In this document: piece after piece, positions 1,420 to 55,099 of the stretch
Position numbering within the stretch: position 1 is the stretch's first letter
Layout of the letters: the number at the start of each line of letters is the position of its first letter
NCBI GenBank assembly: GCA_035430005.1
Contig: DAOMFV010000012.1
Coordinates: 591 to 64,590, forward strand
Direction of reading: 5' to 3'
DNA: 64,000 nucleotides
From: Gemmatales bacterium
Lineage (GTDB): Bacteria; Planctomycetota; Planctomycetia; Gemmatales; HRBIN36
Made by a program: the position numbers and the translations under genes
The notes under the pieces: model-generated
Told to the model about the DNA's origin: nothing
The model's database searches: none
What the model saw: only the letters and a program-made list of their open reading frames with translations

Positions 1420-1503
1420 CCAGCCCCATTGATGGGGAGGGCGAGGCTCTCACCGAGCCGTTGTTGATACCAGACACACAATCAGACAGATTCAGGTGCG
1501 ACG

Positions 1504-1773
1504 ATGAAACCCAAGATTCACCCCGACTATCGTGACGTGATCTTCAAGGATACCGCAGCGAACTTCGCTTTTATGAGCCGTTCGACGGTCAAGACCAAAG
1601 ACACGATCCAGTGGGAAGATGGCAAGACCTACCCGTTGATCAAGCTCGACATTTCGAGCGCCAGCCATCCGTTCTTCACCGGTAAGATGAAGCTGCTCGA
1701 TTCCGCAGGCCAGATCGATCGCTTCAACAAGCGTTTCAAAGGCACTTACGGTAAGAAAGAAGAAAAGAAGTAA
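1504..1773 (+). CDS. rpmE: 50S ribosomal protein L31, type B (Cys-less)
   Basis: 89-aa ORF starting MKPKIHPDYRDV... and containing ...SHPFFTGK, a classical L31 signature. It has no Cys residues and a long C-terminus, as in type B L31. Confidence 0.9.
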   Translation: MKPKIHPDYRDVIFKDTAANFAFMSRSTVKTKDTIQWEDGKTYPLIKLDISSASHPFFTGKMKLLDSAGQIDRFNKRFKGTYGKKEEKK

Positions 1774-1840
1774 GTCCAGCGACTGCTGGATGATGTCAGA
1801 GAACAACACAACCGAGAGCGGTTGATGAGGAGCAAGAGCG

Positions 1841-2026
1841 ATGGGCAGTATCAAGCGATATGGTGGCAGCCGACCAGAAACCCGGGCTATGAAGCGACGC
1901 AAGATCGCCCGCCGTCTGGACCGGGCAGCACTCCGCAAGACCCCGAACAAGCTGGGTATTCCTCCCCAGGCCAATCTGCTCCGTAAGCAGATTCGTCTGG
2001 CGTTGGCTCAGGTTGGCACTGAGTAG
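1841..2026 (+). CDS. small basic hypothetical protein (doubtful)
   Basis: 61-aa Arg/Lys-rich ORF between rpmE and a strong terminator hairpin. I recognised no family. Confidence 0.2.
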   Translation: MGSIKRYGGSRPETRAMKRRKIARRLDRAALRKTPNKLGIPPQANLLRKQIRLALAQVGTE

Positions 2027-2056
2027 ATAACGCTGTTTTGTATGATATTCCAAAGC

Positions 2057-2090
2057 AACACCGCCCGAAACGTCCGGGCGGTGTTTCGTT
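2057..2090. terminator. Rho-independent-type hairpin between convergent genes
   Basis: The 11-bp stem AACACCGCCCG (2057-2067) pairs with CGGGCGGTGTT (2075-2085) around a 7-nt loop, followed by TCGTTTCC. It lies between the + strand rpmE unit and the stop of the - strand gene at 2097. Confidence 0.6.
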
Positions 2091-2096
2091 TCCTGT

Positions 2097-3446
2097 CTAC
2101 GCAGCTAGTTTAGTCTCGCTCCGCTCTATGTTGCCAACCACTGCCTTCTGCTGGGCGCGCAGTTGGCTGAGCGCCACCGCACAGCCTGCCAGCAATAGCA
2201 AGGTCTTGATGGTGACAGCTCCGTAGTACAAGCTGACCCGTGCCACATACTCGCCCCACCAGGTCAAGGCGATGAAGCCAATCAGGTTGGCAACGATGAA
2301 CAACGTGCCTATCGCCTTGCTTCGCTGCTCCCACGCTACCTTCGCCAGCATCATGCCGGGCAGGATCAGGATGCAGAAATGCGACTTGCTCGAAACTGGC
2401 GAAAAGAGCACCATCAGCATCAGCACCATGCTGTACTCCAGCCCCGGCTCATACGAGAAGATCGGAGCCGTGGTAGTGCCCTTGAAGCTGCCCCCTCGCC
2501 AGAACCCCAGGACGCAGATGGCCAGCAGCACTGCTTGAACTCCGAGCAAACCCAGCTTATAGACCATCGGGGGCAGAGCCGGCGTCAGGTTGATCAACTG
2601 CATCGATCCGTTCGACCAGGTCCAATCGTAAAGGAACATCCGGCTCATCATGCCGGCCAGAGCCTGGTTGTAATAGACGAGCGTTCCCCAACTGCCTGGT
2701 GTGTAGTTGGGATTCTGGAATTGCACGAGGTAGGTATTGATCCAACCCCCCAGCCAGGTGCTCGCTGTGGGACATTGGCTGATCAGATCAGGCAGAAGAT
2801 TGATGCCCACAGCCACTGCAATCATCCAGAGAGTAGCCAGCCACTGTCGATGCCAGAGTAGATAGAGACAAAAGAGAAACGGCGTGGCTTTCAGCCCGGC
2901 AGCGATGCCGAACATCGCAGCAGCCAGGAGTACCCGTCGAGACGACATAGCCACACAGCCTGCGATCATGAAGACAGCTTCGACGAGATCGGTCGCCTGG
3001 TTCGAGAGACCATTGAAGACATAGAAGATGCCCGTGAGAATACCGGCCAGCCAGATGAAATGGTTGGCAGTGAACTTCGTCACCGGTTCGAGTTTGAGGC
3101 CACCTGCCAGTTTCCACATCCACTGGCACAGCAGCACCAGGCACACGACATTGAGCATCCACCATGCCACTTGCTGCCCCCAGGCGGGAAGAGCCAGAAA
3201 CGGGACGATCAGCAGCGCTCGAGCCGGTGGGTAGGCAAAACCAAGCTTGTGTTCATACATGTCCTTGCCATGCACCATTTGATCGGCTGCACGGACATAT
3301 AGTTCAGTCCACGGAGAGTTCGGAGACGCCAGGTAGGTGACCAGGTATCCCAGCATGATGCAACTGGTGATCAAAGTAATCGGATGAGTGCGCAGCCAGT
3401 TGAGGATGCGAGACAACGGCGTGGTCGACACGGTGGTAAGATTCAT
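2097..3446 (-). CDS. polytopic membrane glycosyltransferase, GT87/DUF2029-like
   Basis: Multi-TM ORF with an early FAYPPARALLIVPF motif, reminiscent of DUF2029 mannosyltransferase-like proteins. The start is placed at ATG 3446 (MNLTTVS...) rather than at the TTG at 3503. Confidence 0.55.
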   Translation of the reverse strand: MNLTTVSTTPLSRILNWLRTHPITLITSCIMLGYLVTYLASPNSPWTELYVRAADQMVHGKDMYEHKLGFAYPPARALLIVPFLALPAWGQQVAWWMLNVVCLVLLCQWMWKLAGGLKLEPVTKFTANHFIWLAGILTGIFYVFNGLSNQATDLVEAVFMIAGCVAMSSRRVLLAAAMFGIAAGLKATPFLFCLYLLWHRQWLATLWMIAVAVGINLLPDLISQCPTASTWLGGWINTYLVQFQNPNYTPGSWGTLVYYNQALAGMMSRMFLYDWTWSNGSMQLINLTPALPPMVYKLGLLGVQAVLLAICVLGFWRGGSFKGTTTAPIFSYEPGLEYSMVLMLMVLFSPVSSKSHFCILILPGMMLAKVAWEQRSKAIGTLFIVANLIGFIALTWWGEYVARVSLYYGAVTIKTLLLLAGCAVALSQLRAQQKAVVGNIERSETKLAA

Positions 3447-3512
3447 TGTAGGGGTACCTGAATTTTGGTACCACTTCTTACCGCAATAGGTAATTTTGCA
3501 CAACCGCAGCCT

Positions 3513-3605
3513 GTAGACGCGGCTTCCAGCCGCGTCAGCGGAGATATGATCATAGTTCGAACAGGTAACTTAGTTACTGCTGACGCGGCTGGAAGCCGCG
3601 TCTAC
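3513..3605. repeat. 27-bp perfect inverted repeat with internally palindromic arms
   Basis: GTAGACGCGGCTTCCAGCCGCGTCAGC (3513-3539) and its exact reverse complement (3579-3605). Each arm is itself a hairpin (GACGCGGCT/AGCCGCGTC). The centre contains the palindrome GTAACTTAGTTAC. Confidence 0.9.
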
Positions 3606-3608
3606 TGG

Positions 3609-4217
3609 TCATGCCGCTTTTCGCAACACTGCTTCTGTCACTGCTGATCTTGTTGACTTTTTCGGCAACACTGCCCGCATCACCGAACTGGCGGCAACGC
3701 CGATCGCGGCGAACGCCATGAAAGGGTCGAAAAGGGCGTCCCAGAGGTTTTGGCTACCCGTCATCCCACAGGCAAAGCTCACCACGCCGATCAGCCAGGC
3801 GAGAGCAAGTGCCGGTTGTGTCTGCCAGGCCCAGAACATCAGGAGCCCCACGCCAATAAGAAGCCACTGGGGTTCGTATCCCCAGCCATAGAGGTCAAAC
3901 GTCAGGTAGCCAAGCGTCGAAGCGTACAAGGGTAGCAGAATCGCCAACAACACCCCCCCGACCTGGCCCCGGATTGGCTGATGCGTGCTGAACGGTTTCA
4001 AAAAGGTTCGACCATAGATCACGCACAACAACACCAGCGAGGCGACGCTCAGATCACCCACTACACCACGTACATAGTAGACCACCGAATGGCCGTTCCA
4101 GGGTACGAGCAAGATCACTAACGATACGCACAAATAAACCAACAGAGCCAGGCGCGACGCCCCGAATCGCTGTATCAGTGGCACCGGCAACCCAGCCATC
4201 AAGAGTGCCAGGCCCAT
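3609..4217 (-). CDS. integral membrane protein, unknown function
   Basis: Hydrophobic multi-TM ORF. ATG 4217 (MGLALLMAG...) is preferred because the longer start at 4277 would overlap the upstream gene's end. Confidence 0.5.
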   Translation of the reverse strand: MGLALLMAGLPVPLIQRFGASRLALLVYLCVSLVILLVPWNGHSVVYYVRGVVGDLSVASLVLLCVIYGRTFLKPFSTHQPIRGQVGGVLLAILLPLYASTLGYLTFDLYGWGYEPQWLLIGVGLLMFWAWQTQPALALAWLIGVVSFACGMTGSQNLWDALFDPFMAFAAIGVAASSVMRAVLPKKSTRSAVTEAVLRKAA

Positions 4218-16061: not shown

Positions 16062-16084
16062 GGAGGACTCCTTTGGAGGTGATA

Positions 16085-16157: not shown

Positions 16158-16172
16158 TCAAACTGAGTATTG

Positions 16173-17381: not shown

Positions 17382-17525
17382 GCGAGTAGTTGGCGATCTT
17401 CGTCAAGATGTCGGGCGATGAAAGGTGAGACAACCGTGCTTTTGCTCCTTGCCGAGCGAGGCATTTAGGCCGAAGATCAGAGTATCATTCAACTACGTCG
17501 CCCCCGACTTTAATTGGTATCCGCC

Positions 17526-19373: not shown

Positions 19374-19377
19374 CTTG

Positions 19378-19418
19378 CTCCCCTCTCCCCACTGGGGAGA
19401 GGGGCTGGGGGTGAGGGG
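19378..19418. repeat. PAL-B element (hairpin + CTGGGGGTGAGGGG tail)
   Basis: The 11-bp stem CCCCTCTCCCC/GGGGAGAGGGG has a 3-nt loop and starts right after the tkt stop. It is followed by CTGGGGGTGAGGGG, which recurs at 31836-31848 and, reverse-complemented, at 39893-39906. Confidence 0.8.
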
Positions 19419-19616
19419 CTTCTTCTTGTGGCGTAGCCCTTCGTGAATGACAGCTCATATTGAGTAACAAGGTTTCATGATTCAGCCCCTTCCCCTTTTC
19501 AGGGGCTGTCAATCGTAGTGTCTCAATCATGTTAATAGGGCGACCGGTCCTGCAAGCCACCACCAATTTGCCTCGACGAGCCACCCAGAGCAGGGTAGAA
19601 TGCTACTACCCTCCTG

Positions 19617-41867: not shown

Positions 41868-42086
41868 TCTGCTCCGTGTGAAGGTCCTCTACCCGCTCAG
41901 CACGGATTTCAGAAAAAAATGCCTCGCTTTCACGAGATATAGGGTGAAGGCCAGAAAGAGCCTTTCATTTCTGACATCAATCAACGTCGATCTCTTCCTT
42001 TGCGCCAGACCTGAAGATTCATTTGAGAGTTGCGAATGAGTTTGTTAAGCTAAGTCATATTAATGCACCATTGAGGAAATGAAGTA

Positions 42087-45000
42087 ATGCCACAGGACGC
42101 AAATCAACCCAAAGGCTGGCGGGGCGATGGCAACCAGCCTAAACGAACCGCAAAGTATGGTTGGAAGCCGAAATCGGCGGGCATTGAGAAATCTCTTTTA
42201 ATGCGTCGTGGCACGCAGGTGAGTTTGGCGCTGAGTGTGCTCATGTGCATGGCAGTGATGGTATTCTTGTACCTCCTGTGGAGACCCCCTGAGCAAACCA
42301 GCATCATAATTGTTGCCGCCAGGCCTTCTGCAGATGCCACCGATTTGCGGGCTCCGCTGGACTTCCATGGTTGGGAGGGTTGTCAGAAATTGATGCGCTA
42401 TGTGAAAGACGCTAAGGATATCAAAGCTGCAGAAATTCTGCCCAAAGACAAAGACCACTTATCCTTATCAGATCAGAACAGCCTTCTTGAACTAGTCACC
42501 CTGGTGCAGAACAGCAAAACCAGCAGAGTGATTGTCTATTTCGGCCTCTTTGGTTTCGCTGGAGAACATGGCCCCTGTTTATTTGGCTCACATGGCGAGA
42601 TCATCCAGGTGAGCAAAATCATTGAGGAATTGGGAAAAGTTGCCGGGAAAGGTAAGGATATCGTCCTCCTTTTCGATGCTGCCCGCTTGCCAGTCGCCCC
42701 GGAACTCGGAGTTTTGCGCAACGACTTTGTGAGTTCACTTAAGGAGAATTTGGGTGAAAAGATCAAAAATACGAACCATCTTGCGGTGATCTGTAGCAGC
42801 AGCCCTGAAGAGCGTGCCTGGAACAGCGATGAATGGGGTTGTTCTGTTTTCCTTCAGCAGGTGATTGAAGCGTTACGTGGAAAGGCCAAAGGCAAGAGTG
42901 ACGATATTACGCTGATTCAATTCTTTAAGACGGTCGAGGAGGAAACCAAACGTTGGACCCAACTGCGCTTTGTGAGCCCGCAAATCCCGACTCTATTCTG
43001 TTCTGATGAAATGAAATCTGAAAAGAGTCCCGTCATTGTCACCCAGCAAAATAAGCATGAACCACTGAAAGACACCGAAGCCTCTAACGCACCCGGGTAC
43101 GACTGGGTAGTCAATGCTGACACGCATTTGGAAAAGCTCAAGAAACATTACATTGACACCTCCAATCTGGCCAAAGCCAGGCCGCACCCGGCTGTCTATA
43201 CTCCGGTTTCCTGGCGGCGGTATCGTGAGTTGCTGGTCAGACTGGAGCAAGCTGTTCGTATGAATGGCATCATGGCATCAGACACAGCAAGAAAACTGGA
43301 CGATGAATTAATCACATTGGAACAGTTCATCAGCAAATCGCAAGCTCTAGGCTTTGAAAAAGTTAGGGATACCAACACCATCTGGCCCATCATACTGGCT
43401 GGCAAAGCAGAGGAAGTTGAAACAGCAGACGTGTTCGCAGGGAATACGGCAAATTTGGCTCAGGAAACGTTCCACAAACCCTTCAACAGCGCTGATCCAC
43501 CACCTCCAGGCGCCGAACTACACCTGGCGTACAAGCTGGCGCAGTTCTGGGATAAAGGTTCTAAGCCATTACCAGATACCTTGAAACTCGCCATCGAGAC
43601 CCGCCAACTGGCGGAACGGGCCGCTCTCGGCTGCCCTGCGAAACCTATGGAGTATTTCTACACCGAACGGCTTTGGGAATGGATACAACCTGAACTCGAG
43701 AAACTGGATGCCAGGCGGCGCATCGCTGAAGACTATCTCTTCAGTGATGAACATCAAAAAGCTGTCGAGGACTTGAATGCGTTGAAACTGGAATATCAGA
43801 CTCTGATCAACAAATGTCTGCCGCTGCAAAAAGCCTGGGATGTGTATCATTATGCCGTCTCTGAAGCCTCCTTCCTCACGAAGTGGCATGTCTTTTGCGC
43901 GGAAGAATTGCAAGACAAAGACAAAGCAACGCGTCTCCAGGAGCTTTGGCGGGAGGTTCATCTATTGGAAGAAAACTTGCGGACAATCAAATTGGAAGAA
44001 TACTTCCGGACAGTCAATCGGGATTCTACTGCCAAAGAGATGGAGGAGATGGTGAAAAGATGCCGGGAGATCAATCTGTTGATGAAAACAGAGATGAAGG
44101 ACTTCCTTATTGCGGCCAACGATAAAATCGAAAAGGCGGCTGGTTCGCAAATTCCCCGGCATCAACTTGAGCTGCTGCTGTCGTTCCCCTGGCCGATTCC
44201 GAGAGAGAGCGATGCTGACAATAGACCGGTTGCAGATCGAGTGCTCGCCATCAACAAAGCTCGCGGAGCTAGCAGAGATTTGCACAAGACCGAAGGCCCA
44301 AGCAATATTACCCCCGATCCGAAAGTCTTGGACAAGATCGTTCAGTATCGAGGCGAATTGATTAAATCGATGATGCAGAAGGTCAATCCACGTTCCGATT
44401 CATTCCCCTTCGATGGTGGCCAAAAACAAGCGAAGGAGTTGGGCAAAGAGATAGAAGCATTTTGGAGGATGTTGGCTGTTGAAGGAGCCAAAGAACAAAA
44501 GCTTGATCTTGCAGATGTCAATTCTCGATATGCCTTGGCATTTACTGCAGGAACACCTGTCGAAGTCGCCCTGAACCAGCGCGATGCAAGGTATCGAACG
44601 CTCCTGAGAGAGCACGCCAAGCGTATTTGTCGGGATCACTGGTACGATGAGACGACGGCCTATTTCAAAGCAACTGCTGATAAGTACCTGAATAACGAGG
44701 GCGTTTTTTTTATTGATCCAGATAAGGACAATGACCCGGAGCTAAGGGACTTGTTGAAAACGGACCAACTGAAATGGAAACCCTCTACGTTAGAGAGGGC
44801 TTGGACGAGTGAGCCGAGCCGGGAATGGCCAATCGAAGTAGAGAATCCACTCAAGAAGATCGAAGGTCGGATTACGCTCTGGGCTGAAAACGGTACCGAG
44901 ACGGCAATCATGTTGAAAGAGGGGGGGGAGCGACGACTCTCGATGCCGCTGAACGAAGCCAGGCGAACGCTCACTTTGGAAGCCAAGGATGCCAGCGGCG

Positions 45001-47009
45001 TGGAAAAGAGGAAAATCGATCTGGCGTTTGCACCCAAAGCTTATTTCCGGGGGCAGAAGCCCTATGAGAGTATGGGTTTTTCCCTCAATCGCCAGCCTAG
45101 CTTGATTGTGACGGAACATCCCATGAAGGAAGGCGGGACGTTTACGTTGACCAAGGCAAAGGACTTACGTTTGGGATTGGGGCATTTGGCGATTGTGTTG
45201 GATTATTCACATAGTATGAGAGTGAGTGGTGAGGCTACCAAATACAACAAGGACGGCAAGGCTATCGACTGGAATTGGCGGCGAGAGGATAGTCGTATTC
45301 GGCAAGCCATTGATGGATTGGACAAACTGCTGAAAACTTTGTCTGATGATGTAAATGAAATTGATCTAAGTATTCATGTTTTCAGTGAGGAGAACGAAAA
45401 GACGAAAGCAATTCAAGAAAAGATTAGTTTCAAAGAAGGAGATCCGTTACGAAGTGACAAAATCCAGGATTTGACGCAGCAGATAGAAATTACTGAAATG
45501 TTCATTGGCATACTTAAGAAACGAGGTGGCAAGCGAGTATTAGTACCTCATGATAATAAGATGCCAGAACTTACTTTGGATGAATTTGGTATGCAACTAC
45601 AGCGACTAACACCCTATTCAAGTACTCCTCTGCTAAAATCGATGATTGGGGCCGTCAAACCTGTAAGAAATAAGCAGAACGTTACCTTACTTGTTTTGAC
45701 TGATGGTGCCGATACATCGCTTGGAGAACTGGAAAAAACAGACGATGCCAAGATTGATACTCTCAGGAAAAGCTTTGAGAATGAGTTTTTCAATAGCGGA
45801 TTATCAATCAACATTATTCTGTTCACCACTGATAAAGACGAAAAGGCTATTGCACATAGGCAGTTCAAAGAATTCAAGAGCGACACAAGTTCGTGCGTAG
45901 TAAAGGAAGCTATTGATTCGCAAGAGCTTCTGATAGCCTTGAAAGATTCATTCAAGGCAAGAATGGAAGTTTTTGATAAGAGTAATCAAGCCATACATTC
46001 AAAGGAAAAGGATTCTCCACCATATTTTACTGCCCAAAAGATAAACTCAACAATAGGAGAACTGTCTATTTCTCCTCTACTTACAACTGGCACCTATGAC
46101 TCCCAAGTTCGTGTTGATAAGCAGCTGTTATCTTTTTTCCCAGGTGATCACTTATTTATCAAGTTGGAAAATGCGCCTCGAGGAGTGAAGTACAAACGAG
46201 AATTGTTCAAAGACGTGCTACCATTCAGCCAACCCGGACCATCTGAACGCTACATTCCTGGAGAAATCGACGGCAAGAAGACGCTGTGGCATTTGACTGT
46301 GGCGGAGAATCTCGCTCCTGGACACTTGAGGCTAACACTCGAACACGAAAAACATCGAGTGGAATCCTCAGAAGGAACTCTACCTGTTCTCAGCATGTAC
46401 CGACCGGAATTCGTCTGGTGGGATGTCAAGGCTGTGGGAACGAGCGGAAAAGAGCAGCCAGCTCAAGGCACGATTCACATCACCAAACTGCCACATTACT
46501 ACGCGCCCGGTTGGGATATCGATCAAATAGGAACCAAGAAGGATGAGAAGCTCAGGTTTCAGGCATGGGTTAGTGAAAATATTATTCAAAAGCAGCACCT
46601 CCATTCTTTTGTTCGTAGTGAATTGAAAAAGAACAACGATTGGCAAAAAATCAACAACCAGCTAATATCTGTTTCGTGCGAAACGCATGATCTCACGAAT
46701 GGTTCTCAACCGATCTCGAAGCAGGTTCCTTGCCTAGTGGTACGTTATCGACTAAGCAGTTCTGAACAACGTGTCTGGTTCGAAAAGCCTACTAGTAGCG
46801 TGAATCGATCGGATCACTATTACTTTCCTGATGCTCAGACGATGACAGTATTCTTTTCTCCGTTTAACCCCGAAGGCGATCCCGACGAGAAACTCTCGTT
46901 GGAAATGATCGACCTGGACAACTTCAAGCAACTCAAAAAGCCCGTCGTTGACACCAAAATTGACGTGTTCAAGAACTGGCAAGGTCCTCCGAATCTCGAC
47001 AGCAAGTAA
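42087..47009 (+). CDS. giant single-pass membrane protein: basic N-tail, TM, caspase-like (C14-fold) module lacking the catalytic Cys, long helical region, vWA/MIDAS domain, beta-rich C-terminus
   Basis: 1640-aa uninterrupted ORF with a GAGGAA Shine-Dalgarno sequence 8 nt upstream. The TM is at about aa 45-65. The caspase-like strands are VIVYFG..AGEHG, IVLLFDAAR and LAVICSSSPEERAWNSD..CSVFLQQVIEALRG. The vWA motifs are VLDYSHSM (DxSxS), SSTPL and LLVLTDGADT. Confidence 0.85.
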   Translation: MPQDANQPKGWRGDGNQPKRTAKYGWKPKSAGIEKSLLMRRGTQVSLALSVLMCMAVMVFLYLLWRPPEQTSIIIVAARPSADATDLRAPLDFHGWEGCQKLMRYVKDAKDIKAAEILPKDKDHLSLSDQNSLLELVTLVQNSKTSRVIVYFGLFGFAGEHGPCLFGSHGEIIQVSKIIEELGKVAGKGKDIVLLFDAARLPVAPELGVLRNDFVSSLKENLGEKIKNTNHLAVICSSSPEERAWNSDEWGCSVFLQQVIEALRGKAKGKSDDITLIQFFKTVEEETKRWTQLRFVSPQIPTLFCSDEMKSEKSPVIVTQQNKHEPLKDTEASNAPGYDWVVNADTHLEKLKKHYIDTSNLAKARPHPAVYTPVSWRRYRELLVRLEQAVRMNGIMASDTARKLDDELITLEQFISKSQALGFEKVRDTNTIWPIILAGKAEEVETADVFAGNTANLAQETFHKPFNSADPPPPGAELHLAYKLAQFWDKGSKPLPDTLKLAIETRQLAERAALGCPAKPMEYFYTERLWEWIQPELEKLDARRRIAEDYLFSDEHQKAVEDLNALKLEYQTLINKCLPLQKAWDVYHYAVSEASFLTKWHVFCAEELQDKDKATRLQELWREVHLLEENLRTIKLEEYFRTVNRDSTAKEMEEMVKRCREINLLMKTEMKDFLIAANDKIEKAAGSQIPRHQLELLLSFPWPIPRESDADNRPVADRVLAINKARGASRDLHKTEGPSNITPDPKVLDKIVQYRGELIKSMMQKVNPRSDSFPFDGGQKQAKELGKEIEAFWRMLAVEGAKEQKLDLADVNSRYALAFTAGTPVEVALNQRDARYRTLLREHAKRICRDHWYDETTAYFKATADKYLNNEGVFFIDPDKDNDPELRDLLKTDQLKWKPSTLERAWTSEPSREWPIEVENPLKKIEGRITLWAENGTETAIMLKEGGERRLSMPLNEARRTLTLEAKDASGVEKRKIDLAFAPKAYFRGQKPYESMGFSLNRQPSLIVTEHPMKEGGTFTLTKAKDLRLGLGHLAIVLDYSHSMRVSGEATKYNKDGKAIDWNWRREDSRIRQAIDGLDKLLKTLSDDVNEIDLSIHVFSEENEKTKAIQEKISFKEGDPLRSDKIQDLTQQIEITEMFIGILKKRGGKRVLVPHDNKMPELTLDEFGMQLQRLTPYSSTPLLKSMIGAVKPVRNKQNVTLLVLTDGADTSLGELEKTDDAKIDTLRKSFENEFFNSGLSINIILFTTDKDEKAIAHRQFKEFKSDTSSCVVKEAIDSQELLIALKDSFKARMEVFDKSNQAIHSKEKDSPPYFTAQKINSTIGELSISPLLTTGTYDSQVRVDKQLLSFFPGDHLFIKLENAPRGVKYKRELFKDVLPFSQPGPSERYIPGEIDGKKTLWHLTVAENLAPGHLRLTLEHEKHRVESSEGTLPVLSMYRPEFVWWDVKAVGTSGKEQPAQGTIHITKLPHYYAPGWDIDQIGTKKDEKLRFQAWVSENIIQKQHLHSFVRSELKKNNDWQKINNQLISVSCETHDLTNGSQPISKQVPCLVVRYRLSSSEQRVWFEKPTSSVNRSDHYYFPDAQTMTVFFSPFNPEGDPDEKLSLEMIDLDNFKQLKKPVVDTKIDVFKNWQGPPNLDSK

Positions 47010-47029
47010 TACCCCAGGAACCGCCCAAC

Positions 47030-49846
47030 ATGTCTGAAGCGAAGCCTGTTCCTTCTGGTCCTGAACGCCGTTGGCGGAAGGAGCAACCTTCGGAGTTCAA
47101 GAGCATCGAGAGGCGCGGACGGATGGCGATCTTGGCCATCGGCGCGGTCGTGCTGGCCGGTATCCTCATCGGAAGTTTATTCATGTGGGGAAGCGCTAAG
47201 CAAACCCATCTCGATTGCTACCCCTATGGCAGATACGACAACGAACTACGGGCACCGGCCCCCTGGTTCTTTCACGACGCAAACCAACTCTATCAGACCT
47301 TTGGCGTTCTGGAGACCAGAAACCCTCTTACTAAGTTGCAGCACGACTTCCTCATCAGTGATCTGAAGAGTCGTAAAGAAGAAACCATCATCATCTATAT
47401 CGCAGGTCGGGGCATTGCGCGGAATAACAAGGTCTACGTACTGCCCAGCGACGCAACGGACGTTGAGTCCAGTTGGATTTCGCTTGCTTCCATTATCGAG
47501 GCAATTACAGAAAGCCCATCAAAACACAAACTGTTGCTGTTAGACATCGCCGGCACTGCGCCCAATCTCTACACCGGGCCATTGCAGGACAGCATCGCCA
47601 ATAAGATTGATGACTATCTCGCCAAAACGTCGCCTCCCCCTTTCCCCATGCTGACCTCTTGCTCTAGAGATGAAACCAGCAACGTCATGGCTGTCACGGG
47701 CAGCAGCGTCTTTGGTCATTACCTGAATCAGGGGCTACAGGGATTAGCGAATGGCTTTGTCGACGGTCATAAAGATCAAGAAATCACCGTCAAGGAACTG
47801 GTGAAGTTTGTCAACACACGAGTCAATCGCTGGACTTGCCTGAACCTGGGACGAACGCAAACCCCCAAGTGTTACGGCCCAGAGGATATTGATTTCCTGG
47901 TAGTCCATCGACATAAAATAGCAAACTGGCTGGAAGAGCTACCCAAGCCTGCTGAAACGCCGGCACCACCCGATGAAAGCAACTTGAAAGACAAGGAGAA
48001 GCAGGAGAATAACGAGAAAAGAGAGAAAGAGCAAAAGGCGAAAGATCAGGAGAAGCTTAGATTCGTCTTCCCGAAAGAACTGGAAGAAGGCTGGAAGGTT
48101 TACGAAGTAGCCAAGAACACGCCTGAGTACGCGCTGCGCCTGGCCACGTTGAATCGTTTTGCGCATCATCTCCGCCAGTACGAGGGAACGGTGATGTTGT
48201 TCAATAACAGCCCGGAGACCGAGCGAACCCTGAACAAGCGATTGCTTACGGATTTGAGTAAACATGTTACCGATGTCACTTCAGACTTATCCAAAATTGA
48301 ACTCCAAACACGCCTGAAACAGCTTCCTAACAGCATCACTGCCCTGTGGCCCCGAAGCTGGCTGCAACTACGAACCAGGGCACCGAGAGAGATTCCCACC
48401 GAACTGGTAGATGGCTTTAACAATCTCTATTCTTCGTGGCCAAGCACTTCTGCAGGCAGCGTAAAAGCTGATCCGACGGAGAGGGAAAAAGCGTTTCTTG
48501 ATCTCGTCAGCGGCAAGAAGGACGAGAAGAACCCAGCTCCCTCTCGCTATGAGGAAGCTCTGTTTCTTTGCTGGGATAAGCTTTGTGCCGAGGATACTCG
48601 CCTCACGCTGGATCTGTTGAAACGCTCAGTGGATCTGATGACGAAGCTTCTTCCCGATGCCGTGCGCAACAAACTTCATGAGCGATGCAACGAACTGGAT
48701 ATGCTCAGATGGATTATCGAACAAAGTGAAGGAGACTCGGAATGGAACTTTTCCGGCAAAGAGTATGAGACAAACAGGGAACTTGGCCAGTATTACTTCG
48801 ACATGATTCACCAATGGCTGATGGCGGAGTATCTGTCTGAGCGATGCGCGAACGGCTATCTGCCAGACGGCGTCGGGTTTGCCAGCCGACAAGCTTCATT
48901 GGAATCAGTTAAGAAGCAGCATCAACGAATAGTCCAACAACTGCTGGAACTCAGAAATAGGAAGAGTTATCGGCCACTCTCCTCAGAAATGGTCGAGTTT
49001 GCCAAGCAATTCAAGTCTTTGTCCGGTGACTACACTAATTGCCTGAAAGACATGGATCAGGAGCGGGCTGCCCTGGATGCCTGGTGGGCCTCCGTGGCGG
49101 TCCTCCAGGCAACCGCAGAAATGATGGTCAGTGAAGATAATTCCGAGCGTTGGCAGTTGTGGGATACGCTGGCGAATAAGACCCTCCTGTTGAAGCGCCT
49201 TCTGAAAGCGACGTCTCTGGATCCATCGGCCCGGACCGACGTTATCAAGGCCCGCGACAAACTGGTTAATTCCTTCAACGACCTGAAGGATAACTTGCTG
49301 AAGAGTGGCAACCAGGAGGGAGTGAAATGGAAATCGTGCCGAGGCATTGAACGAGTGTTGAAATGCGGATTGCTCACCACAGCCGACCGAAGAAAGCTGC
49401 ATGAGTTACTCATGAAGCTACAGGAGGAGATTCACATCAGCACGGTGAATATCGAAATTCGAGATGATAAAGGCACAGAACCGCCCACTAAGCCAGAGGC
49501 ATCGCCTATGAACTCCGCTCTTCAGGCGGATCGACGAGCTGTCATTTCACGGCAATTGTTATTGCTGGGAGGGTCGACCAGGATGGAAAAAGCCAACACG
49601 ACACCCTCGGAAGAGGAGCTGCGAAATGCCTGGACCGAGGAAATGCCCGAGCTCCTTAAGGTCGCCCGCGGCAAAGAGAACTGGCTCGACGCGGCTCGCA
49701 TCGAAGCGGTATTGCCACAAACTAATACAACTGATGCTCTGTTGCAATGGCGACTCAAATCCAGCAAAACGTATTACCTATGGTTGGAAGAGCGACAAAA
49801 GCAGCTGGAAGCCCGGCAATTGCATGTTCCAGACCAACGGAAATAA
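47030..49846 (+). CDS. large single-pass membrane protein: TM + pseudo-caspase module (His->Arg, Cys->Ala) + charged linker + helical region
   Basis: 938-aa ORF starting 20 nt after the previous stop. The caspase-fold pattern is TIIIYIAGRGIARNNKVYVLPSDA, KLLLLDIAGTAP, MLTSCSRDETSNV and SSVFGHYLNQGLQGLA...ITVKELVKFVNTRV...QTPKCYG. Confidence 0.85.
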   Translation: MSEAKPVPSGPERRWRKEQPSEFKSIERRGRMAILAIGAVVLAGILIGSLFMWGSAKQTHLDCYPYGRYDNELRAPAPWFFHDANQLYQTFGVLETRNPLTKLQHDFLISDLKSRKEETIIIYIAGRGIARNNKVYVLPSDATDVESSWISLASIIEAITESPSKHKLLLLDIAGTAPNLYTGPLQDSIANKIDDYLAKTSPPPFPMLTSCSRDETSNVMAVTGSSVFGHYLNQGLQGLANGFVDGHKDQEITVKELVKFVNTRVNRWTCLNLGRTQTPKCYGPEDIDFLVVHRHKIANWLEELPKPAETPAPPDESNLKDKEKQENNEKREKEQKAKDQEKLRFVFPKELEEGWKVYEVAKNTPEYALRLATLNRFAHHLRQYEGTVMLFNNSPETERTLNKRLLTDLSKHVTDVTSDLSKIELQTRLKQLPNSITALWPRSWLQLRTRAPREIPTELVDGFNNLYSSWPSTSAGSVKADPTEREKAFLDLVSGKKDEKNPAPSRYEEALFLCWDKLCAEDTRLTLDLLKRSVDLMTKLLPDAVRNKLHERCNELDMLRWIIEQSEGDSEWNFSGKEYETNRELGQYYFDMIHQWLMAEYLSERCANGYLPDGVGFASRQASLESVKKQHQRIVQQLLELRNRKSYRPLSSEMVEFAKQFKSLSGDYTNCLKDMDQERAALDAWWASVAVLQATAEMMVSEDNSERWQLWDTLANKTLLLKRLLKATSLDPSARTDVIKARDKLVNSFNDLKDNLLKSGNQEGVKWKSCRGIERVLKCGLLTTADRRKLHELLMKLQEEIHISTVNIEIRDDKGTEPPTKPEASPMNSALQADRRAVISRQLLLLGGSTRMEKANTTPSEEELRNAWTEEMPELLKVARGKENWLDAARIEAVLPQTNTTDALLQWRLKSSKTYYLWLEERQKQLEARQLHVPDQRK

Positions 49847-49932
49847 ATTGACACTGGCCGCGTTTGCCGCAAGAATAGCCGGTGTCACCATTCGATTTGC
49901 TCGCTAGGCCAGATTGTTTCAAGGATCACGTT

Positions 49933-51762
49933 ATGTCTTCTCAAGTCAAGGTTCTTATCTCGCTGGCGCTGCTGTTGTGGAGCGGCCCTTCTTTTCTGTC
50001 AGCTCAAGAACGGTTAACGGGGCCGAAATTGGCTTTCGGTACCGACTCGGACGCGGAACGAGCGAGTGCCGAGATGAAGTCTTTTGACCTGCGGCCCAAT
50101 GTCAAATTGCCTTTTTATGTCTTCATCAAGAACTCCGAAATTGATCCAAGGACTATGGTCTTGACTATCACCTGTCTGCAAATGCAGGAACCGACGAAGC
50201 AAGCCGAATCCAAAAAGCTGACTATCGAGGACCTGAAGATTCCGGGCAAAGGTAAAAACGACCTAAAAGATAAGATCCTGGCCGTCCCCTTTCCCAAACT
50301 CGATGACAAGGGAATTAACCTGGGCCTTGCTCAGCAACTGATCTTTAAGCTCGAAGATTCTGAGCGAAGAGTGAAGCTCGATGAAAAAACGATCCAGCTG
50401 AACGTCATGAAAACCGAAGAATATCTTTCGTTCGATCCGTCGCCGGAAATTAACAGTAAAGGGCAACTGGTGGTCAGCGTGAAGCCTACGGCGAAATTCC
50501 GCGGGCCGCCCTGCCAGTTGGAACTTGACTGGTCACGACTGAAGAACCTGGTGCCCGATCAATCCCCCAGCGGCGCCATGAAAGGCGAGGTAGACGATCA
50601 GGAAAACAAGAAAGCCACTCTCTCCATCAATAAATTGCGATTCAACAAGGATAGCAGCGATCATGGCTTCTTCTCCATCAAAGTAGATGACGTGGCGCGA
50701 GCCAGGACCTGGCTGGCTACTGACATGGAATCCACCGCCCGGCTCGATACGCTCCCGGCCAATACGCTCCGCATCGTCACAGAGAAGTATTTCCTGTCGG
50801 ATGCCAAGGACAAGCTCATGGTTTGCTTTGAAGTGGATAACCCGTCAGACCCCGGCAACACTAAACTGGATTTCGGAAGAGATTTATCGGAAACCGGTAA
50901 GTTTGTTGAGTATCATCGTCCCCACTATCGCAACGAAAGTGTTTCCCTACAGACAGATGAGAAAGAGAAAAACGCACTCTTCTTGAAGCCGAACGTCTCT
51001 GATTGGAAGCTGGAGATCTCTTCAGAAGGCCTGGCGGGAACGGCCTTGTTTCGAGCCAGTCTGATTACTCCCAATGATCGTTTTGATAAAGAGACAAAGA
51101 CGATCTTCAGCAAGGCAGTGGCCAAGATCGACCCAATTACCATCCGGGACAGCAAAAACCAGGTCAAAGAGCCGCAGGCGACTTTTCTTCCCGGCGAGAT
51201 GATCAACATCGAGGTGAAGGCACGATGTCCTGAAACTGAGATAACGGAAGTGATGGTGTACGCCGGCGAAGCGGTGCCCGTCCGGGCGGACAACAACAAA
51301 CTCTACGATACCACCAAGCTTATCAGGGCGACATTCAATAATGGAGCCTGGTCAGCTGGCGTGGAAGTGCCCGATAAGAAAGGCAGTTACAAACTGTTCG
51401 CGATCGCCTGGAATGGCGTCGGGCTTCCCTCGACGGAACGACGGGAACTGAAAGTCGTCGACCCGGTACCCGTCACGGATAAGGAGAAATTAGGCAGCAT
51501 CAAGGGAAGGGTAGTCGGCGGGACTGATGAGGTTTCGCAGAAAGAAGTGCCGGTAACCCTCGAAGACAACAATAAGAAGGTTATCAAATCGACGAAGACG
51601 GATGATAAGGGCGCTTTTGAATTCAAGGATGTTCCTGCCGGCAGCTATCTCATTCAGTGCAAACGAGGCACAGGGATAGCAACGGTCAAAGACAAGGTTG
51701 ATGTGACTGTTGAAAACGGCAAAGAAACCATATTGAAGAAGCCTTTGAATCTACACCGATAA
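49933..51762 (+). CDS. secreted beta-rich protein with C-terminal carboxypeptidase-regulatory-like (CarboxypepD_reg) domain
   Basis: Signal peptide MSSQVKVLISLALLLWSGPSFLSAQE, with AAGGAT 6 nt upstream of ATG 49933. The C-terminus GSIKGRVVGG...TKTDDKGAFEFKDVPAGSYLIQC fits the CarboxypepD_reg fold. Confidence 0.8.
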   Translation: MSSQVKVLISLALLLWSGPSFLSAQERLTGPKLAFGTDSDAERASAEMKSFDLRPNVKLPFYVFIKNSEIDPRTMVLTITCLQMQEPTKQAESKKLTIEDLKIPGKGKNDLKDKILAVPFPKLDDKGINLGLAQQLIFKLEDSERRVKLDEKTIQLNVMKTEEYLSFDPSPEINSKGQLVVSVKPTAKFRGPPCQLELDWSRLKNLVPDQSPSGAMKGEVDDQENKKATLSINKLRFNKDSSDHGFFSIKVDDVARARTWLATDMESTARLDTLPANTLRIVTEKYFLSDAKDKLMVCFEVDNPSDPGNTKLDFGRDLSETGKFVEYHRPHYRNESVSLQTDEKEKNALFLKPNVSDWKLEISSEGLAGTALFRASLITPNDRFDKETKTIFSKAVAKIDPITIRDSKNQVKEPQATFLPGEMINIEVKARCPETEITEVMVYAGEAVPVRADNNKLYDTTKLIRATFNNGAWSAGVEVPDKKGSYKLFAIAWNGVGLPSTERRELKVVDPVPVTDKEKLGSIKGRVVGGTDEVSQKEVPVTLEDNNKKVIKSTKTDDKGAFEFKDVPAGSYLIQCKRGTGIATVKDKVDVTVENGKETILKKPLNLHR

Positions 51763-51809
51763 TCGTCGGCGAACTAGTGCCATACTCAAGGAGGTAGTGG
51801 CTCAGATTA

Positions 51810-51897
51810 CTCCTCCCCTTACCAAGGGGAGGTTGGGTGGGGTTAATTACTACGAAGAAATTACCCCCTCCAACTCCCCCTTGGAAAGGGGGAGAGA
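51810..51897. repeat. PAL-B double-hairpin repeat (long form), inverted copy of 5397-5483
   Basis: CTCCTCCCCTTACCAAGGGGAGGTTGGGTGGGG ... TTACCCCCTCCAACTCCCCCTTGGAAAGGGGGAGAGA is the reverse complement of the two ends of the 5397-5483 copy, with a different centre. Confidence 0.85.
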
Positions 51898-52000
51898 ATG
51901 AAACTGACCCACTACCCTCAAGGAAGAAGGTGCGGTTGGGATTGTGTCGAATTTTGCTGGTTGATAGTTCGACAGATCAAAAGTCATCCGGAGTGATACC

Positions 52001-52408
52001 ATGCCGTTCTCTATTCCCTGGTTGTCGGTTATGGCAGCGGCGATCGCCTACTTTGTGCTGGGCGCGCTGTGGTATGGTTACTTCGGCGATGCCTGGCTGA
52101 AAGAACTGCATAAACGTAAAGAACAACTCGATACCAAAGACCCTGCCCCCTATCTGGTAGCGGCTCTGGGGGCCGTGCTGAACGCGACAGCTACCGCTGC
52201 CGTTCTCGGCTGGGTGATGCCTTCTACGCAAACCACGCTTCTGGCAGTGTTCATCACCACGCTCTTTCTGGGTGGAGCTGTAGTGGCTGCCGGCGCGGCC
52301 AAACATTATGCTTTTTCGGGCTGGTCGTGGAGACTTTACGCCATCGATATGGGGCATGATCTGGCAGGCTTCTTCCTCATGAGCCTGATCATCGCACTAC
52401 TGAAGTAG
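52001..52408 (+). CDS. DUF1761-family membrane protein
   Basis: N-terminus WLSVMAAAIAYFVLGALWYGYFGDAWLK, four TM segments, and a length of about 135 aa. Confidence 0.6.
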   Translation: MPFSIPWLSVMAAAIAYFVLGALWYGYFGDAWLKELHKRKEQLDTKDPAPYLVAALGAVLNATATAAVLGWVMPSTQTTLLAVFITTLFLGGAVVAAGAAKHYAFSGWSWRLYAIDMGHDLAGFFLMSLIIALLK

Positions 52409-53519
52409 CGACTTCAGGAATCGCTCCACCCCTGACGGGCCTGCCTTTCCACTGCACGAGAATCATCATCGCCATCCCGGCGGCAAATAACCCGATGCTG
52501 ATTGTCTGCGAGATGGTGAAGTTGCCTACATACTCAGGATTATCCAACCGCAGTTGTTCAATGAGGTAGCGGTTGATGGAGTAGGTCATCATAAGCAGGG
52601 CGATGACCGCCCCTTCTCTGCGTCGCAACGGATAGTATGCCGAAAGCAGCAGGCACAGGATGATTCCATCCAGCGCCATGTAGAGTTGCGTTGGCAACAG
52701 GGGCAGGCTCGGCGGGGGCACAAACGTCAGATTCTTCGTTTCTCCATGGCGTTTGACGGTGATCGTCACTTCTTCGTAAGGTCTGACAGCGATCAATGCC
52801 TGGTTGATGGCATCTCGTGTCAGCGTGGCGTGCCCATTGATCGATTCAACGAGATCGTCTTTTTGCAGTCCAGCCTTCTCAGCCGAAGAACCAAAGTCAA
52901 CAGCAACGATGGTGCAGTCATCCTTGATATCCATGCCCAGTTGCATACCAAATGTTGTCTGCCAGCCTCGCAGCCAGACGACTTCATGATAAGGATTGCT
53001 ATTGGCAGGAAATTGCACAGTCATCGAACTGGGCACATGCGCGGGGTCAGCGACATCGCCATAACAGCAGCCATTGAGGAAGCAGCCTATCCGACCGAAA
53101 GCAATGCCCAAGGCAATGGAAGGCGCCAACCAGTCGGCGATTTGCAGCGTTCGCACCTTGGCCGGCTTTGCTACATAGCGATACGCCAGCAGGTACCCCA
53201 GAAGACCCCCTGGAATCGCACCATAGAGCACCAGGCCCCCTTCCCAGATCTTGACGAACTGCTGAATGCCTTCCCAGAGGTTTATGGGCGGTTTCTGATC
53301 GACAAACATTGAGAGCAACCGAGCACCAATGACACCGCCAACGAAGATATACAGCCCCACGTCCCACGGTATGGTAGAGAAATACCCTTCCCGCTTCGCC
53401 CGTCGTCCCGCGAGCCAAGCCGATGCCACGAAGGCGATGATCAGCATCACGCCGAAGCCAAAGATGGGCATTCTGGCATCGCCGAAGGGCAGGGGGATGT
53501 AGAAGAGGACTTGTCGCAT
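52389..53519 (-). CDS. lgt: prolipoprotein diacylglyceryl transferase with an inserted PDZ-like domain
   Basis: Lgt signature FGRIGCFLNGCCYG and an Lgt-like N-terminus. An extra ~90-aa segment (AVDFGSSAEKAGLQKDDLVESINGH...VTITVKRHGE) looks PDZ-like. The gene overlaps the convergent DUF1761 gene by 20 nt. Confidence 0.85.
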   Translation of the reverse strand: MRQVLFYIPLPFGDARMPIFGFGVMLIIAFVASAWLAGRRAKREGYFSTIPWDVGLYIFVGGVIGARLLSMFVDQKPPINLWEGIQQFVKIWEGGLVLYGAIPGGLLGYLLAYRYVAKPAKVRTLQIADWLAPSIALGIAFGRIGCFLNGCCYGDVADPAHVPSSMTVQFPANSNPYHEVVWLRGWQTTFGMQLGMDIKDDCTIVAVDFGSSAEKAGLQKDDLVESINGHATLTRDAINQALIAVRPYEEVTITVKRHGETKNLTFVPPPSLPLLPTQLYMALDGIILCLLLSAYYPLRRREGAVIALLMMTYSINRYLIEQLRLDNPEYVGNFTISQTISIGLFAAGMAMMILVQWKGRPVRGGAIPEVATSVVR

Positions 53520-53581: not shown

Positions 53582-55099
53582 TTACCAATCGATTTGCTCC
53601 CAGACAGCCAACAGCTTGGCTCCCTTTGCTCGATTAACCTCTGCCATTGCAGCAATTCTGCCTCGAAGATGTTCAGGAAAATCAGGATGTTGATAACGGT
53701 TCTGGCTGGCACCCCCCTGCTTGTTGCAGTTATGCAGAATCGCTTTCAGTTCGTCATACTCGGCACGGCGGACATTGCACTTTTCGTTGACGACTACGCC
53801 GCACACTTCCTGTCTTTGACTTTGCCGCATGAGATGGGTTTTCTTCAGGTTCAATCGGAAGCCTTCTTGTTCAACGATGGTGTGCATCAATGTCATCATC
53901 GAAAGACGTGTACGCCCTAGTGGACGATCTCCGGAGAGAGTGAGATCATCGGCGTAGCGGGTGTAGTGCCAGCCTTTTTGTTTTGCCAGATAAGCTAGGC
54001 GAAGATCAAGATGATAGGCAGCCAGATTGGCCAATGCCGGTGAAGTGGGCGCGCCCTGGGGCAAGTGACGTTCACGCCAGCATTTCATCTGCAGCCATTG
54101 CTCAGGCTGATGATCGTACCGTGGATGGGTACGCCAAACCTCATCCGGGGTGGCCTTGGTACAGAGCGCAGCCAGGTTGCGAGCTACCGTCCGGGGATAC
54201 CCCATGCGGCGGAAGATGGCCATCACCTTGAACTGATGCACGGAAGGAAAGAAGTCAGCCAGATCGAAGCTAATGACCACTTCCTGCTTCAGATGCTGTT
54301 TGGCATTGGTCACGATCGATCGCCCGGCACGAAAGCCATGGACCGCAGCGTGTGGCGGAGCCTGATCGAGGATGCCATGCAGAATCTTCCGCTGAACGTT
54401 CTTGAGTCTGAGCTTGGGTATCTCCAGCAACCGGACTTTTCCCCGCTTGGAAGGTACCCAGCGGTAGCGGTAGTGATGCCGTGGGCCGAGGGGGAGATGC
54501 TGCTGTATCCCATGAAGATCAGCGAGTCCTTCGAGTTGATGAACCGACAGTCCCAGGTACTCGGCCAAGGCCGATAATGTAGTAATTGCCGGCACAGGCC
54601 ATCGTTCCCAGATTGTCTGCATCTGTGGTGAAGGACTGGGGATCTTCCGAAGTCTGCCTTTTGATTCTCGGTCGGTCAGCCAGGTGATTAATTTAAGTTG
54701 TATCAACTCGCCATAATCCTTGGTCCAATGCCGTCCTGGTGTTCCAATCTTCGGACAACGATAAAGCTGATGCAACAACGACTCTTCATCCATCATTCTG
54801 TTCTGAATGAGTCGATAATACTCGGCCACCGGTTTGGCTAAAGACTTGGGCAGCCCCAGTCGCTTCTTCAGATGTGCAACGAATTCATCAGCCGACCGGG
54901 TCTCCAGCAGCACAATAGCTACCAGCCGAAGCAGACGCCTTTTCAGTTTATATCGATGGTTGATCACTATCGGGCGTCTCACGCATTTCTGCGGTAAGAC
55001 TGTCGAGGTAAAGGAAAAGTGCCTGGCAGCCCAACGAGGCTCGTGATGCGAGGCCAATTCTGTGTGAAGCACAGTCGCGGCCTTGCTCGGAAATGTCAC
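53582..55099 (-). CDS. retron-type reverse transcriptase with N-terminal extension
   Basis: RT motifs are close to Ec86: HYRYRWVPSKRGKVRLLEIPK, NAKQH (NAxxH), ISFDLADFFPSV, LPQGAPTSPALANL, YTRYADDLTLS, VCGVVVNEK (VTG-like) and HLRGRIAAMAEVN. The longest ORF starts at GTG 55099. In-frame GTG 54982 or 54967 are alternative starts downstream of the candidate ncRNA. Confidence 0.85.
   Translation of the reverse strand: MTFPSKAATVLHTELASHHEPRWAARHFSFTSTVLPQKCVRRPIVINHRYKLKRRLLRLVAIVLLETRSADEFVAHLKKRLGLPKSLAKPVAEYYRLIQNRMMDEESLLHQLYRCPKIGTPGRHWTKDYGELIQLKLITWLTDRESKGRLRKIPSPSPQMQTIWERWPVPAITTLSALAEYLGLSVHQLEGLADLHGIQQHLPLGPRHHYRYRWVPSKRGKVRLLEIPKLRLKNVQRKILHGILDQAPPHAAVHGFRAGRSIVTNAKQHLKQEVVISFDLADFFPSVHQFKVMAIFRRMGYPRTVARNLAALCTKATPDEVWRTHPRYDHQPEQWLQMKCWRERHLPQGAPTSPALANLAAYHLDLRLAYLAKQKGWHYTRYADDLTLSGDRPLGRTRLSMMTLMHTIVEQEGFRLNLKKTHLMRQSQRQEVCGVVVNEKCNVRRAEYDELKAILHNCNKQGGASQNRYQHPDFPEHLRGRIAAMAEVNRAKGAKLLAVWEQIDW

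Follow-up and report, generated by a model that had tools for sequence, protein, structure and literature searches.

We analyzed a window of 64,000 nucleotides from a Gemmatales bacterium of the phylum Planctomycetota (GenBank assembly GCA_035430005.1, contig DAOMFV010000012.1, positions 591 to 64,590 of the forward strand); coordinates given below without a contig or locus name are positions in this window. The gene of interest encodes a 1640 amino acid membrane protein, here called PsCasp1, that carries near its N-terminus a domain with the fold of a caspase. A first-pass annotation of the window, made from the sequence alone, had proposed that this domain keeps its catalytic His, has Ala in place of the catalytic Cys, and serves in binding, scaffolding, or regulation rather than in proteolysis. 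According to our alignments both catalytic residues are replaced, and the PsCasp1 family is tightly associated with type VI secretion systems (T6SS). The features of the gene, with the evidence for each, are as follows.

42087..47009, forward strand: gene for PsCasp1, a 1640 amino acid single-pass membrane protein (open reading frame [ORF] list; hydropathy scan).
42297..43007, forward strand: caspase-fold (Peptidase_C14-like) domain, residues 71-307, predicted to be catalytically dead (Pfam, AlphaFold2, Foldseek, hhalign).
42549..42551, forward strand: Phe155, equivalent of the catalytic His (hhalign; family column; DSSP on the model).
42567..42569, forward strand: His161, a non-catalytic position (hhalign; variable column).
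42675..42686, forward strand: D197-A198-A199-R200, with Ala199 (42681-42683) at the catalytic Cys position (hhalign; hidden Markov model [HMM] alignment to 3e4c).
42783..42881, forward strand: p10-like segment LAVICSSSPEERAWNSDEWGCSVFLQQVIEALRG (alignment to caspase-1 p10 and to a canonical C14 protein).
43038..45116, forward strand: residues 318-1010, comprising approximately 550 all-alpha residues and then an immunoglobulin (Ig)-like beta-sandwich (approximately 907-1010) (AlphaFold2).
45183..45870, forward strand: probable von Willebrand factor A (vWA) domain with a metal ion-dependent adhesion site (MIDAS)-type motif, D1039-x-S1041-x-S1043 and then D1206 (family conservation; Pfam matches of relatives).

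Profile searches and comparisons with a predicted structure confirm the caspase (Peptidase_C14) fold of residues ~71-307. When these residues are excised, the Pfam model PF00656 matches them with an E-value of 2.2e-5 (24.7 bits, against a cut-off of 21.4), and it also exceeds its cut-off in the corresponding domains of four of six aligned relatives. The AlphaFold2 model of the domain, built from a six-sequence alignment, has a pLDDT of 85 and a pTM of 0.88. When the PDB was searched by Foldseek with this model, 157 structures matched at E <= 1e-3. Caspase-9, -8, -11, -3, -7, -6, CED-3, and MALT1 account for the entire top 50 (E-values from 7e-10 to 3e-7, probability 1.0, TM-score ~0.6). Searches against the PDB sequences were far less productive: phmmer and hmmsearch with the domain or the family profile returned marginal caspase-1 matches alone (E-values 0.14-1.7), a 28-sequence family profile matched nothing at E <= 0.01, and P0055, a family member that retains both His and Cys, gave irrelevant matches only. 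The most caspase-like stretch is the p10-like segment LAVICSSSPEERAWNSDEWGCSVFLQQVIEALRG, which bears the conserved Trp245, Ser247, and Phe255 and aligns both to a 32-residue stretch of caspase-1 p10 and to FSCSARQRSYEDLERKHGVFFHYVIEGLTGKA of a canonical C14 protein. The C14 fold that the first-pass annotation had read from the sequence is supported, well above the level of chance, by PF00656, AlphaFold2, and Foldseek, and the different fold that it had allowed for does not appear in the model.

Active members of Peptidase_C14 have a catalytic His after strand beta3 (xHG) and a catalytic Cys after strand beta4 (DxC or QACxG); PsCasp1 has neither. As a canonical comparator we used a Gemmatales C14 protein (ORF 1438..3696 of locus L052; G032:C1, ~2165 kb) that matches PF00656 over the whole model at an E-value of 5e-26 and contains the motifs SGHG and DACR. 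It was taken from a relative because no canonical C14 protein was found in the organism's own genome. The alignment of this protein with the 28-sequence family profile by hhalign (probability 98%, E-value 2.5e-13) pairs RVIVYFGLFGFAGEHGPCLF with TVLIAVSGHGLQFDKEAYFC, which places Phe155 opposite the catalytic His of SGHG, His161 opposite Lys, and Cys164 opposite Tyr. It also pairs DIVLLFDAAR with VKVLFVDACR, which places Ala199 opposite the catalytic Cys. The secondary structure of the model, assigned by DSSP, agrees with this mapping: strand R147-G153 is followed by L154-F155-G156, with Phe155 directly after the strand and directly before the invariant Gly156, and strand K190-F196 is followed by D197-A198-A199. 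A weak HMM alignment to the caspase-1 chain 3e4c, which we take to be the C285A mutant, puts LLFDAAR on IIQAARG and Ala199 on residue 285. By these alignments both dyad residues are missing in PsCasp1, the His being replaced by Phe155 and the Cys by Ala199. The first-pass annotation had located His161 and Ala199 correctly on the ORF, and its assignment of Ala199 to the Cys position agrees with the alignment to DACR and with residue 285 of 3e4c. It erred in regarding His161 as the retained His, a residue that faces Lys in a variable column.

Cys164, Cys236, and Cys252 were considered as substitute nucleophiles and ruled out by alignment and conservation. Cys164, which had been named as a possible occupant of the catalytic position, faces Tyr in the comparator and falls in a column that is Tyr or Phe in 115 of 123 full-length family members; Cys236 alternates with Ser in the family alignment and lies inside a beta-strand. 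Residual catalysis by PsCasp1 is excluded as far as its sequence allows.

Across the family, 112 of the 123 members have His in column 155. In column 199, Thr is present in 96 members and Ala in 15, while just three have Cys. The pair His and Thr occurs in 91 members and the pair His and Cys in three (P0055, P0094, and P0116; motif DVCH). These three proteins match PF00656 at ~1e-10, which indicates that the family descends from an active orthocaspase. Column 161, by contrast with column 155, is variable (K21, N18, D18, E17, Q14, H7), and two orthologs with 63% identity have Asn and Asp there. A FastTree phylogeny puts PsCasp1 in a clade of six members (support 0.995). Every protein of this clade has the His replaced by Leu, Ile, or Phe and the Cys replaced by Ala, and in the sister group the His persists beside an Ala or Gly in place of the Cys. 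The Ala, whose conservation the first-pass annotation had proposed to check, is a constant feature of the six-member clade and not of the family at large, where Thr prevails. In most members a conserved Thr-Gln (LDATQ) stands where Cys-x would be, with a conservation above that expected of a decayed site, for which we have no explanation.

The best-conserved residues of the domain are non-catalytic: G156, D197, G208, N212, F214, W245, F255, W290, Q299, and P301 are each conserved in 93-100% of the members. Five of them (D197, G208, N212, F214, and W245, each conserved in 96-98%) surround what was once the active site. At position 197, 120 of 123 members have Asp, and in metacaspases, orthocaspases, and paracaspases the Asp two positions before the nucleophile helps to form the S1 pocket for a basic P1 residue. 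The conservation around the dead center suggests that a binding surface has been retained.

From the N- to the C-terminus, PsCasp1 consists of a basic tail (residues 1-42), a transmembrane (TM) helix (approximately 43-67), the pseudo-caspase domain, the helical region, the Ig-like domain, the vWA domain, and a beta-rich tail. The TM helix is the single hydrophobic segment found by the hydropathy scan. Given the basic N-terminal tail, the positive-inside rule predicts that the remaining ~1570 residues are periplasmic. Residues 318-1010 were modeled by AlphaFold2 with a pLDDT of 76 and a pTM of 0.80. Foldseek found no PDB match for this region at E <= 1e-3, and for its Ig-like sandwich it gave weak generic matches to Ig-like chaperone or MG-type domains and nothing else. 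In the vWA domain D1039, S1041, S1043, D1206, and D1209 are invariant across 24 full-length members. The corresponding region of relatives matches Pfam VWA or VWA_2 (PF00092/PF13519), while that of PsCasp1 itself is below the Pfam threshold; with its MIDAS-type motif intact, it is predicted to bind metal. PsCasp1 is a single-copy gene in its genome, and an exhaustive profile search yielded 331 cluster representatives of the family at E < 1e-30, nearly all of them 1600-1750 amino acids long. Wherever the family is named in the sources searched, the label is “hypothetical protein,” no NCBIfam or PADLOC model exists for it, and the full-length protein has no match in Pfam or NCBIfam scans.

PsCasp1 is always followed by a paralog of the PsCasp2 type and by a third protein. 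In the window these are encoded by the following two genes.

47030..49846, forward strand: gene for PsCasp2, a 938 amino acid paralog of PsCasp1 and single-pass membrane protein with a caspase-fold domain that is likewise predicted to be dead (BLASTP, profile match).
49882..51762, forward strand: third gene of the module, encoding a 626 amino acid beta-rich protein with a CarboxypepD_reg-type sandwich at its C-terminal end (Pfam PF13620, 5.6e-9).

PsCasp2 shares with PsCasp1 the basic tail, the TM helix, and the start of the caspase fold; the N-terminal domains of the two proteins match each other in BLASTP with an E-value of 3e-9, and PsCasp2 matches the family profile at 4e-71. In its dyad, Arg127 stands in for the His and Ala174 for the Cys. 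Among all 11 aligned copies of PsCasp2 (the one in the window and ten orthologs), Cys never occurs at the catalytic position and His is rare at its own. The third protein is probably secreted, as judged from a signal peptide predicted from its sequence. The third gene is syntenic in L001, G047, G048, G093, G017, and G072. In locus L002, PsCasp2 and the third protein are fused in a single ORF of 1603 amino acids (16463-21274), and second ORFs of approximately 1600 amino acids are found in G086, G093, G017, and G072. Such a Rosetta-stone fusion indicates that the two proteins work together and implies a physical interaction between them. In the same locus L002, which belongs to the relative with family member P0008, a gene for a CorA-like Mg2+/Co2+ channel (15223-16191) lies between the two pseudo-caspase genes, an arrangement worth recording given the predicted metal-dependent site of the vWA domain.

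The own-genome module stands alone on contig C12, between lipid A genes and lgt. Its G+C content is 0.42-0.52 (positions 42000-52000, with the minimum at 45-46 kb over the vWA domain), compared with 0.54-0.58 in the housekeeping genes that flank it, and its AT skew is strongly positive. The neighboring lgt gene, for prolipoprotein diacylglyceryl transferase (52389-53519, reverse strand), contains an inserted PDZ domain (PDZ_6, 1.8e-9, residues 204-257), and between tsf and lgt there is a gene for a reverse transcriptase (RVT_1, E-value 8e-23; 53582-55099, reverse strand). PsCasp2 also matches the NCBIfam model caspase_w_EACC1 at 1.2e-7, below the cut-off. The defense-system reading prompted by this weak match was rejected, as it has no PADLOC support and the module contains no NTPase or effector partner. 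The genome has one further Peptidase_C14 match, which lies outside the window (C120:1833-2495, reverse strand; PF00656 E-value 2.9e-9, in a frame of 840 amino acids) and is also Cys-less: it reads VHAITLGGKGYLVP and then FDIAQ, and the protein has an N-terminal zinc-ribbon-like motif (CxxC...CxxC) and a TM helix. Judging from these sequences, the genome seems to be without a catalytically intact C14 peptidase.

We are interested in the function with which this module is associated. In a sample of 101 Gemmatales genomes, we scored the family by a domain profile match at E < 1e-20 and the T6SS by the presence of TssC (PF05943). The family occurs in 49 of 50 TssC-positive genomes and in none of 51 TssC-negative genomes (Fisher p = 2.6e-28), the latter having at most weak profile matches in short ORFs. 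Because presence and absence alternate within genera (e.g., g7, g12, and g14), the association is not accounted for by phylogenetic inertia alone. Outside Gemmatales but within Planctomycetia, long family members are found in all five TssC-positive genomes and in none of 11 TssC-negative ones.

Gene order in relatives points in the same direction. The loci of P0007 and P0008 are flanked by VgrG, PAAR, TssB/C, TssK, DotU, and IcmF_N genes. When synteny was traced by tblastn with the T6SS proteins of the own genome, the module was found beside or inside a T6SS cluster in nine of ten loci inspected; the exception is L001, which has VgrG at a distance of a few kb downstream. In G047, G048, and L002 the order is vgrG (reverse strand), then PsCasp1, PsCasp2, and the third gene (forward strand), then tssM(N), tssL, and tssK (reverse strand). 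The module directly adjoins tssA-B-C in G086, G093, G017, and G072, lies within the cluster in G063, and lies beside it in G218.

The own genome contains a complete T6SS cluster (C8:22775-57264) with tssK, tssL, tssM(N), a giant kinase gene, clpV, tssA-C, hcp, tssE-G, and vgrG. The TssM-like gene of this cluster encodes only 554 amino acids and ends at the third TM helix. PF06761, the model of the TssM periplasmic domain, reaches its cut-off in not one of the 101 Gemmatales genomes, and the E. coli control is positive. The PsCasp1 family is present exactly where the periplasmic half of TssM is absent. The idea that residues 318-1010 of PsCasp1 are a detached TssM periplasmic domain was examined by folding and Foldseek and is not supported: the helical part matches no PDB structure at E <= 1e-3, the Ig-like sandwich has weak generic matches alone, and TssM is not among the matches; no PsCasp1 segment has a Pfam match to IcmF-related or IcmF_C either. 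The giant kinase of the cluster is a membrane Ser/Thr kinase of 1889 amino acids whose long tail is helical or TPR-like. The cluster also encodes two proteins that resemble outer-membrane beta-barrels (847 and 497 amino acids) and a 2294 amino acid repeat protein next to vgrG. On another contig (C75:12840-15959, reverse strand) a 1039 amino acid ORF has TssB-like and TssC-like parts (PF05943, E-value 1e-80); it may be a sheath protein fusion that belongs to another, second contractile system.

Our main explanation, to which we give a probability of about 60%, is that residues 71-307 of PsCasp1 serve, without proteolysis, as a scaffold or binding domain within an envelope module associated with the T6SS. 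The non-proteolytic role suggested by the first-pass annotation gains strength here from the substitution of both dyad residues; no alternative Cys is conserved, and the paralog is Cys-less too. In this explanation the dead caspase domain would sit just outside the N-terminal membrane helix, where a periplasmic assembly would have the end nearest to the membrane. The dead caspase domains of PsCasp1 and PsCasp2 would act as a scaffold for binding proteins or peptides, most likely pairing through the usual caspase dimer interface in the manner of caspase-8 with inactive c-FLIP. The analogy with caspase dimers and with the caspase-8/c-FLIP pair is what suggests this heterodimer. The former substrate groove (Asp197, Gly208, Asn212, Phe214, Trp245, Ser247) may still hold a peptide of a partner. 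The scaffold would anchor a periplasm-spanning assembly of the two giants and the third protein, and this assembly would supply or regulate the envelope-crossing part of the T6SS. It is tempting to go one step further and propose a separate planctomycete type of T6SS membrane complex whose missing half, the one that spans the envelope, consists of PsCasp1, PsCasp2, and the third protein; in it they would replace the TssM periplasmic domain and the TssJ lipoprotein, with the pseudo-caspases heterodimerizing at the inner membrane to nucleate assembly. We offer this extended proposal tentatively and would not put its chances as high as even. Both the dimerization and a structural, rather than regulatory, role are conjectural parts of the explanation.

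Several observations weigh against an explanation of this kind. One TssC-positive Gemmatales genome (G095) has no detectable family member, and most T6SS-positive Planctomycetota beyond the class Planctomycetia lack the family, which shows that it is not a universal requirement. In the own genome, the module on C12 and the T6SS cluster on C8 are not adjacent, so the link here is drawn from co-occurrence and from synteny in relatives. Co-occurrence does not separate a structural part from a regulator or accessory factor. The topology of PsCasp1 is a prediction from the positive-inside rule. Foldseek detected no structural similarity of residues 318-1010 to TssM, TssJ, or any other T6SS part. 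Finally, 91% of the members of the wider family retain the His although the Cys is gone, which hints at a chemical or binding role that has been lost in the PsCasp1 clade.

Comparison with the known membrane complex shows both sides of the proposal. Like the components of the TssJ-TssL-TssM complex of T6SS(i), PsCasp1 is encoded (in relatives) beside tssL, tssK, and vgrG, appears to be anchored in the inner membrane, and has a very large predicted periplasmic part that is helical and then beta-rich. It differs from them in that neither its sequence nor its fold was seen to resemble TssM or TssJ (the fold comparison covering residues 318-1010), and pseudo-caspase and vWA domains are unknown in TssJLM.

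Among the alternatives, the strongest is that the module is no structural part but works in the envelope to sense or regulate the firing of the T6SS. A signal or partner in the periplasm would be bound by its vWA domain and dead caspase groove, and information would pass inward, e.g., via the giant Ser/Thr kinase of the T6SS cluster. We consider it unlikely. The invariant MIDAS motif would fit such a role, and so would the 1889 amino acid membrane kinase encoded in the own T6SS cluster and a kinase that adjoins tssK in G047. The module can also stand apart from the core cluster, as it does here, and such a separation is commoner among regulators than among core components. There is a precedent in Pseudomonas aeruginosa, where the H1-T6SS is under post-translational control by PpkA, an inner-membrane protein whose periplasmic part is a vWA domain, and by TagQRST. 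PsCasp1 differs from PpkA in having no kinase domain, in its additional caspase-fold domain, and in its short cytoplasmic part of ~42 residues, which contains no recognizable signaling domain. Moreover, nearly one-to-one co-occurrence (49/50) and a position between vgrG and tssM-L-K are typical of core parts, and the missing periplasmic half of TssM is a structural gap that needs a filler. We prefer the missing envelope-crossing part over a vWA-based sensor or regulator.

It is improbable that PsCasp1 acts as cargo, effector, or adaptor of the T6SS, or that it has a general function in the envelope or in adhesion and is connected to the T6SS indirectly through a shared ecology or shared mobile history. 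Large genes beside vgrG/PAAR are often effectors, as locus L001 might suggest, and the module has a lower G+C content than its flanks and is unlinked from the T6SS cluster here. However, PsCasp1 begins with a signal-anchor and not with a PAAR, MIX, Rhs, or toxin domain; its architecture is conserved rather than polymorphic over hundreds of members; there is no pattern of small immunity-like genes; and the three genes form a fixed unit, with a Rosetta-stone fusion in some genomes and no PADLOC matches. Less probable still is a hydrolase with a non-canonical nucleophile (the conserved Thr at the Cys position, or another residue in PsCasp1): the His (112/123) and Thr (96/123) at the dyad positions are more conserved than simple decay predicts and three members retain His and Cys, but the Phe and Ala of PsCasp1 could not act in catalysis, its entire clade lacks the His, the vicinity offers no conserved Cys, Ser, or Thr (other members have Tyr or Phe in place of Cys164), and we know of no Thr-nucleophile enzyme on the caspase fold.

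We compared PsCasp1 with caspase homologs of several kinds. It has in common with the orthocaspases and metacaspases (Peptidase_C14, MEROPS clan CD) the fold, the strand order, the motif positions, the Asp of DxC, and a p10-like motif (CSS..QRSW.S.E...S.F.HYV.EGL.G), and the nearest C14 relatives we saw are secreted planctomycete C14 proteins such as the comparator from L052. In contrast to these enzymes, its caspase-fold domain has both dyad residues replaced, lies within a 1640 amino acid membrane-anchored multidomain protein, shows no sign of an autoprocessing linker, and is predicted to be non-catalytic. In c-FLIP(L) with caspase-8 (PDB 3h11), and in other animal pseudo-caspases, a caspase fold without a nucleophile pairs with a paralog; chain 3h11_B is among the Foldseek matches of the PsCasp1 domain, at rank 16. 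Unlike that pair, both paralogs are dead here, so the putative PsCasp1/PsCasp2 pair would be unable to activate a protease. Bacterial pseudo-orthocaspases (PMC6426788), including SyOC of Synechocystis (PMC7889975), are prokaryotic p20-containing caspase homologs with a substituted His-Cys dyad and are presumed to be non-proteolytic, as is PsCasp1. They are described as carrying Tyr and Ser at the dyad (PMC6426788) and are mostly cyanobacterial, and their authors link them to photosynthesis or oxidative stress (PMC6426788; PMC7889975). By comparison, the PsCasp1 family has His and Thr (Phe and Ala in PsCasp1 itself), consists of giant membrane proteins that bear a predicted vWA domain, and shows an association with the T6SS. 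The literature we searched contains no description of the PsCasp1 family or of a planctomycete T6SS membrane complex. The dead-caspase domain belongs with the pseudo-orthocaspases; as far as this search extends, its architecture and tight T6SS association have no earlier description.

These findings bear on both annotation and biology. PsCasp1 should not be named a peptidase. Dead proteases that serve as scaffolds are well known in animals, where c-FLIP and other pseudo-caspases are examples, and they are poorly charted in bacteria. The Planctomycetia have full T6SS gene sets in which TssM is cut to its cytoplasmic and membrane part, and how the tube passes through their unusual envelope needs explaining. 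The PsCasp1 family, which tracks the T6SS almost one-to-one, offers a concrete candidate: it may be the part that is missing, or it may control that part. If our proposal is true, the dimer interface of a protease would have been structurally re-used in a secretion machine.

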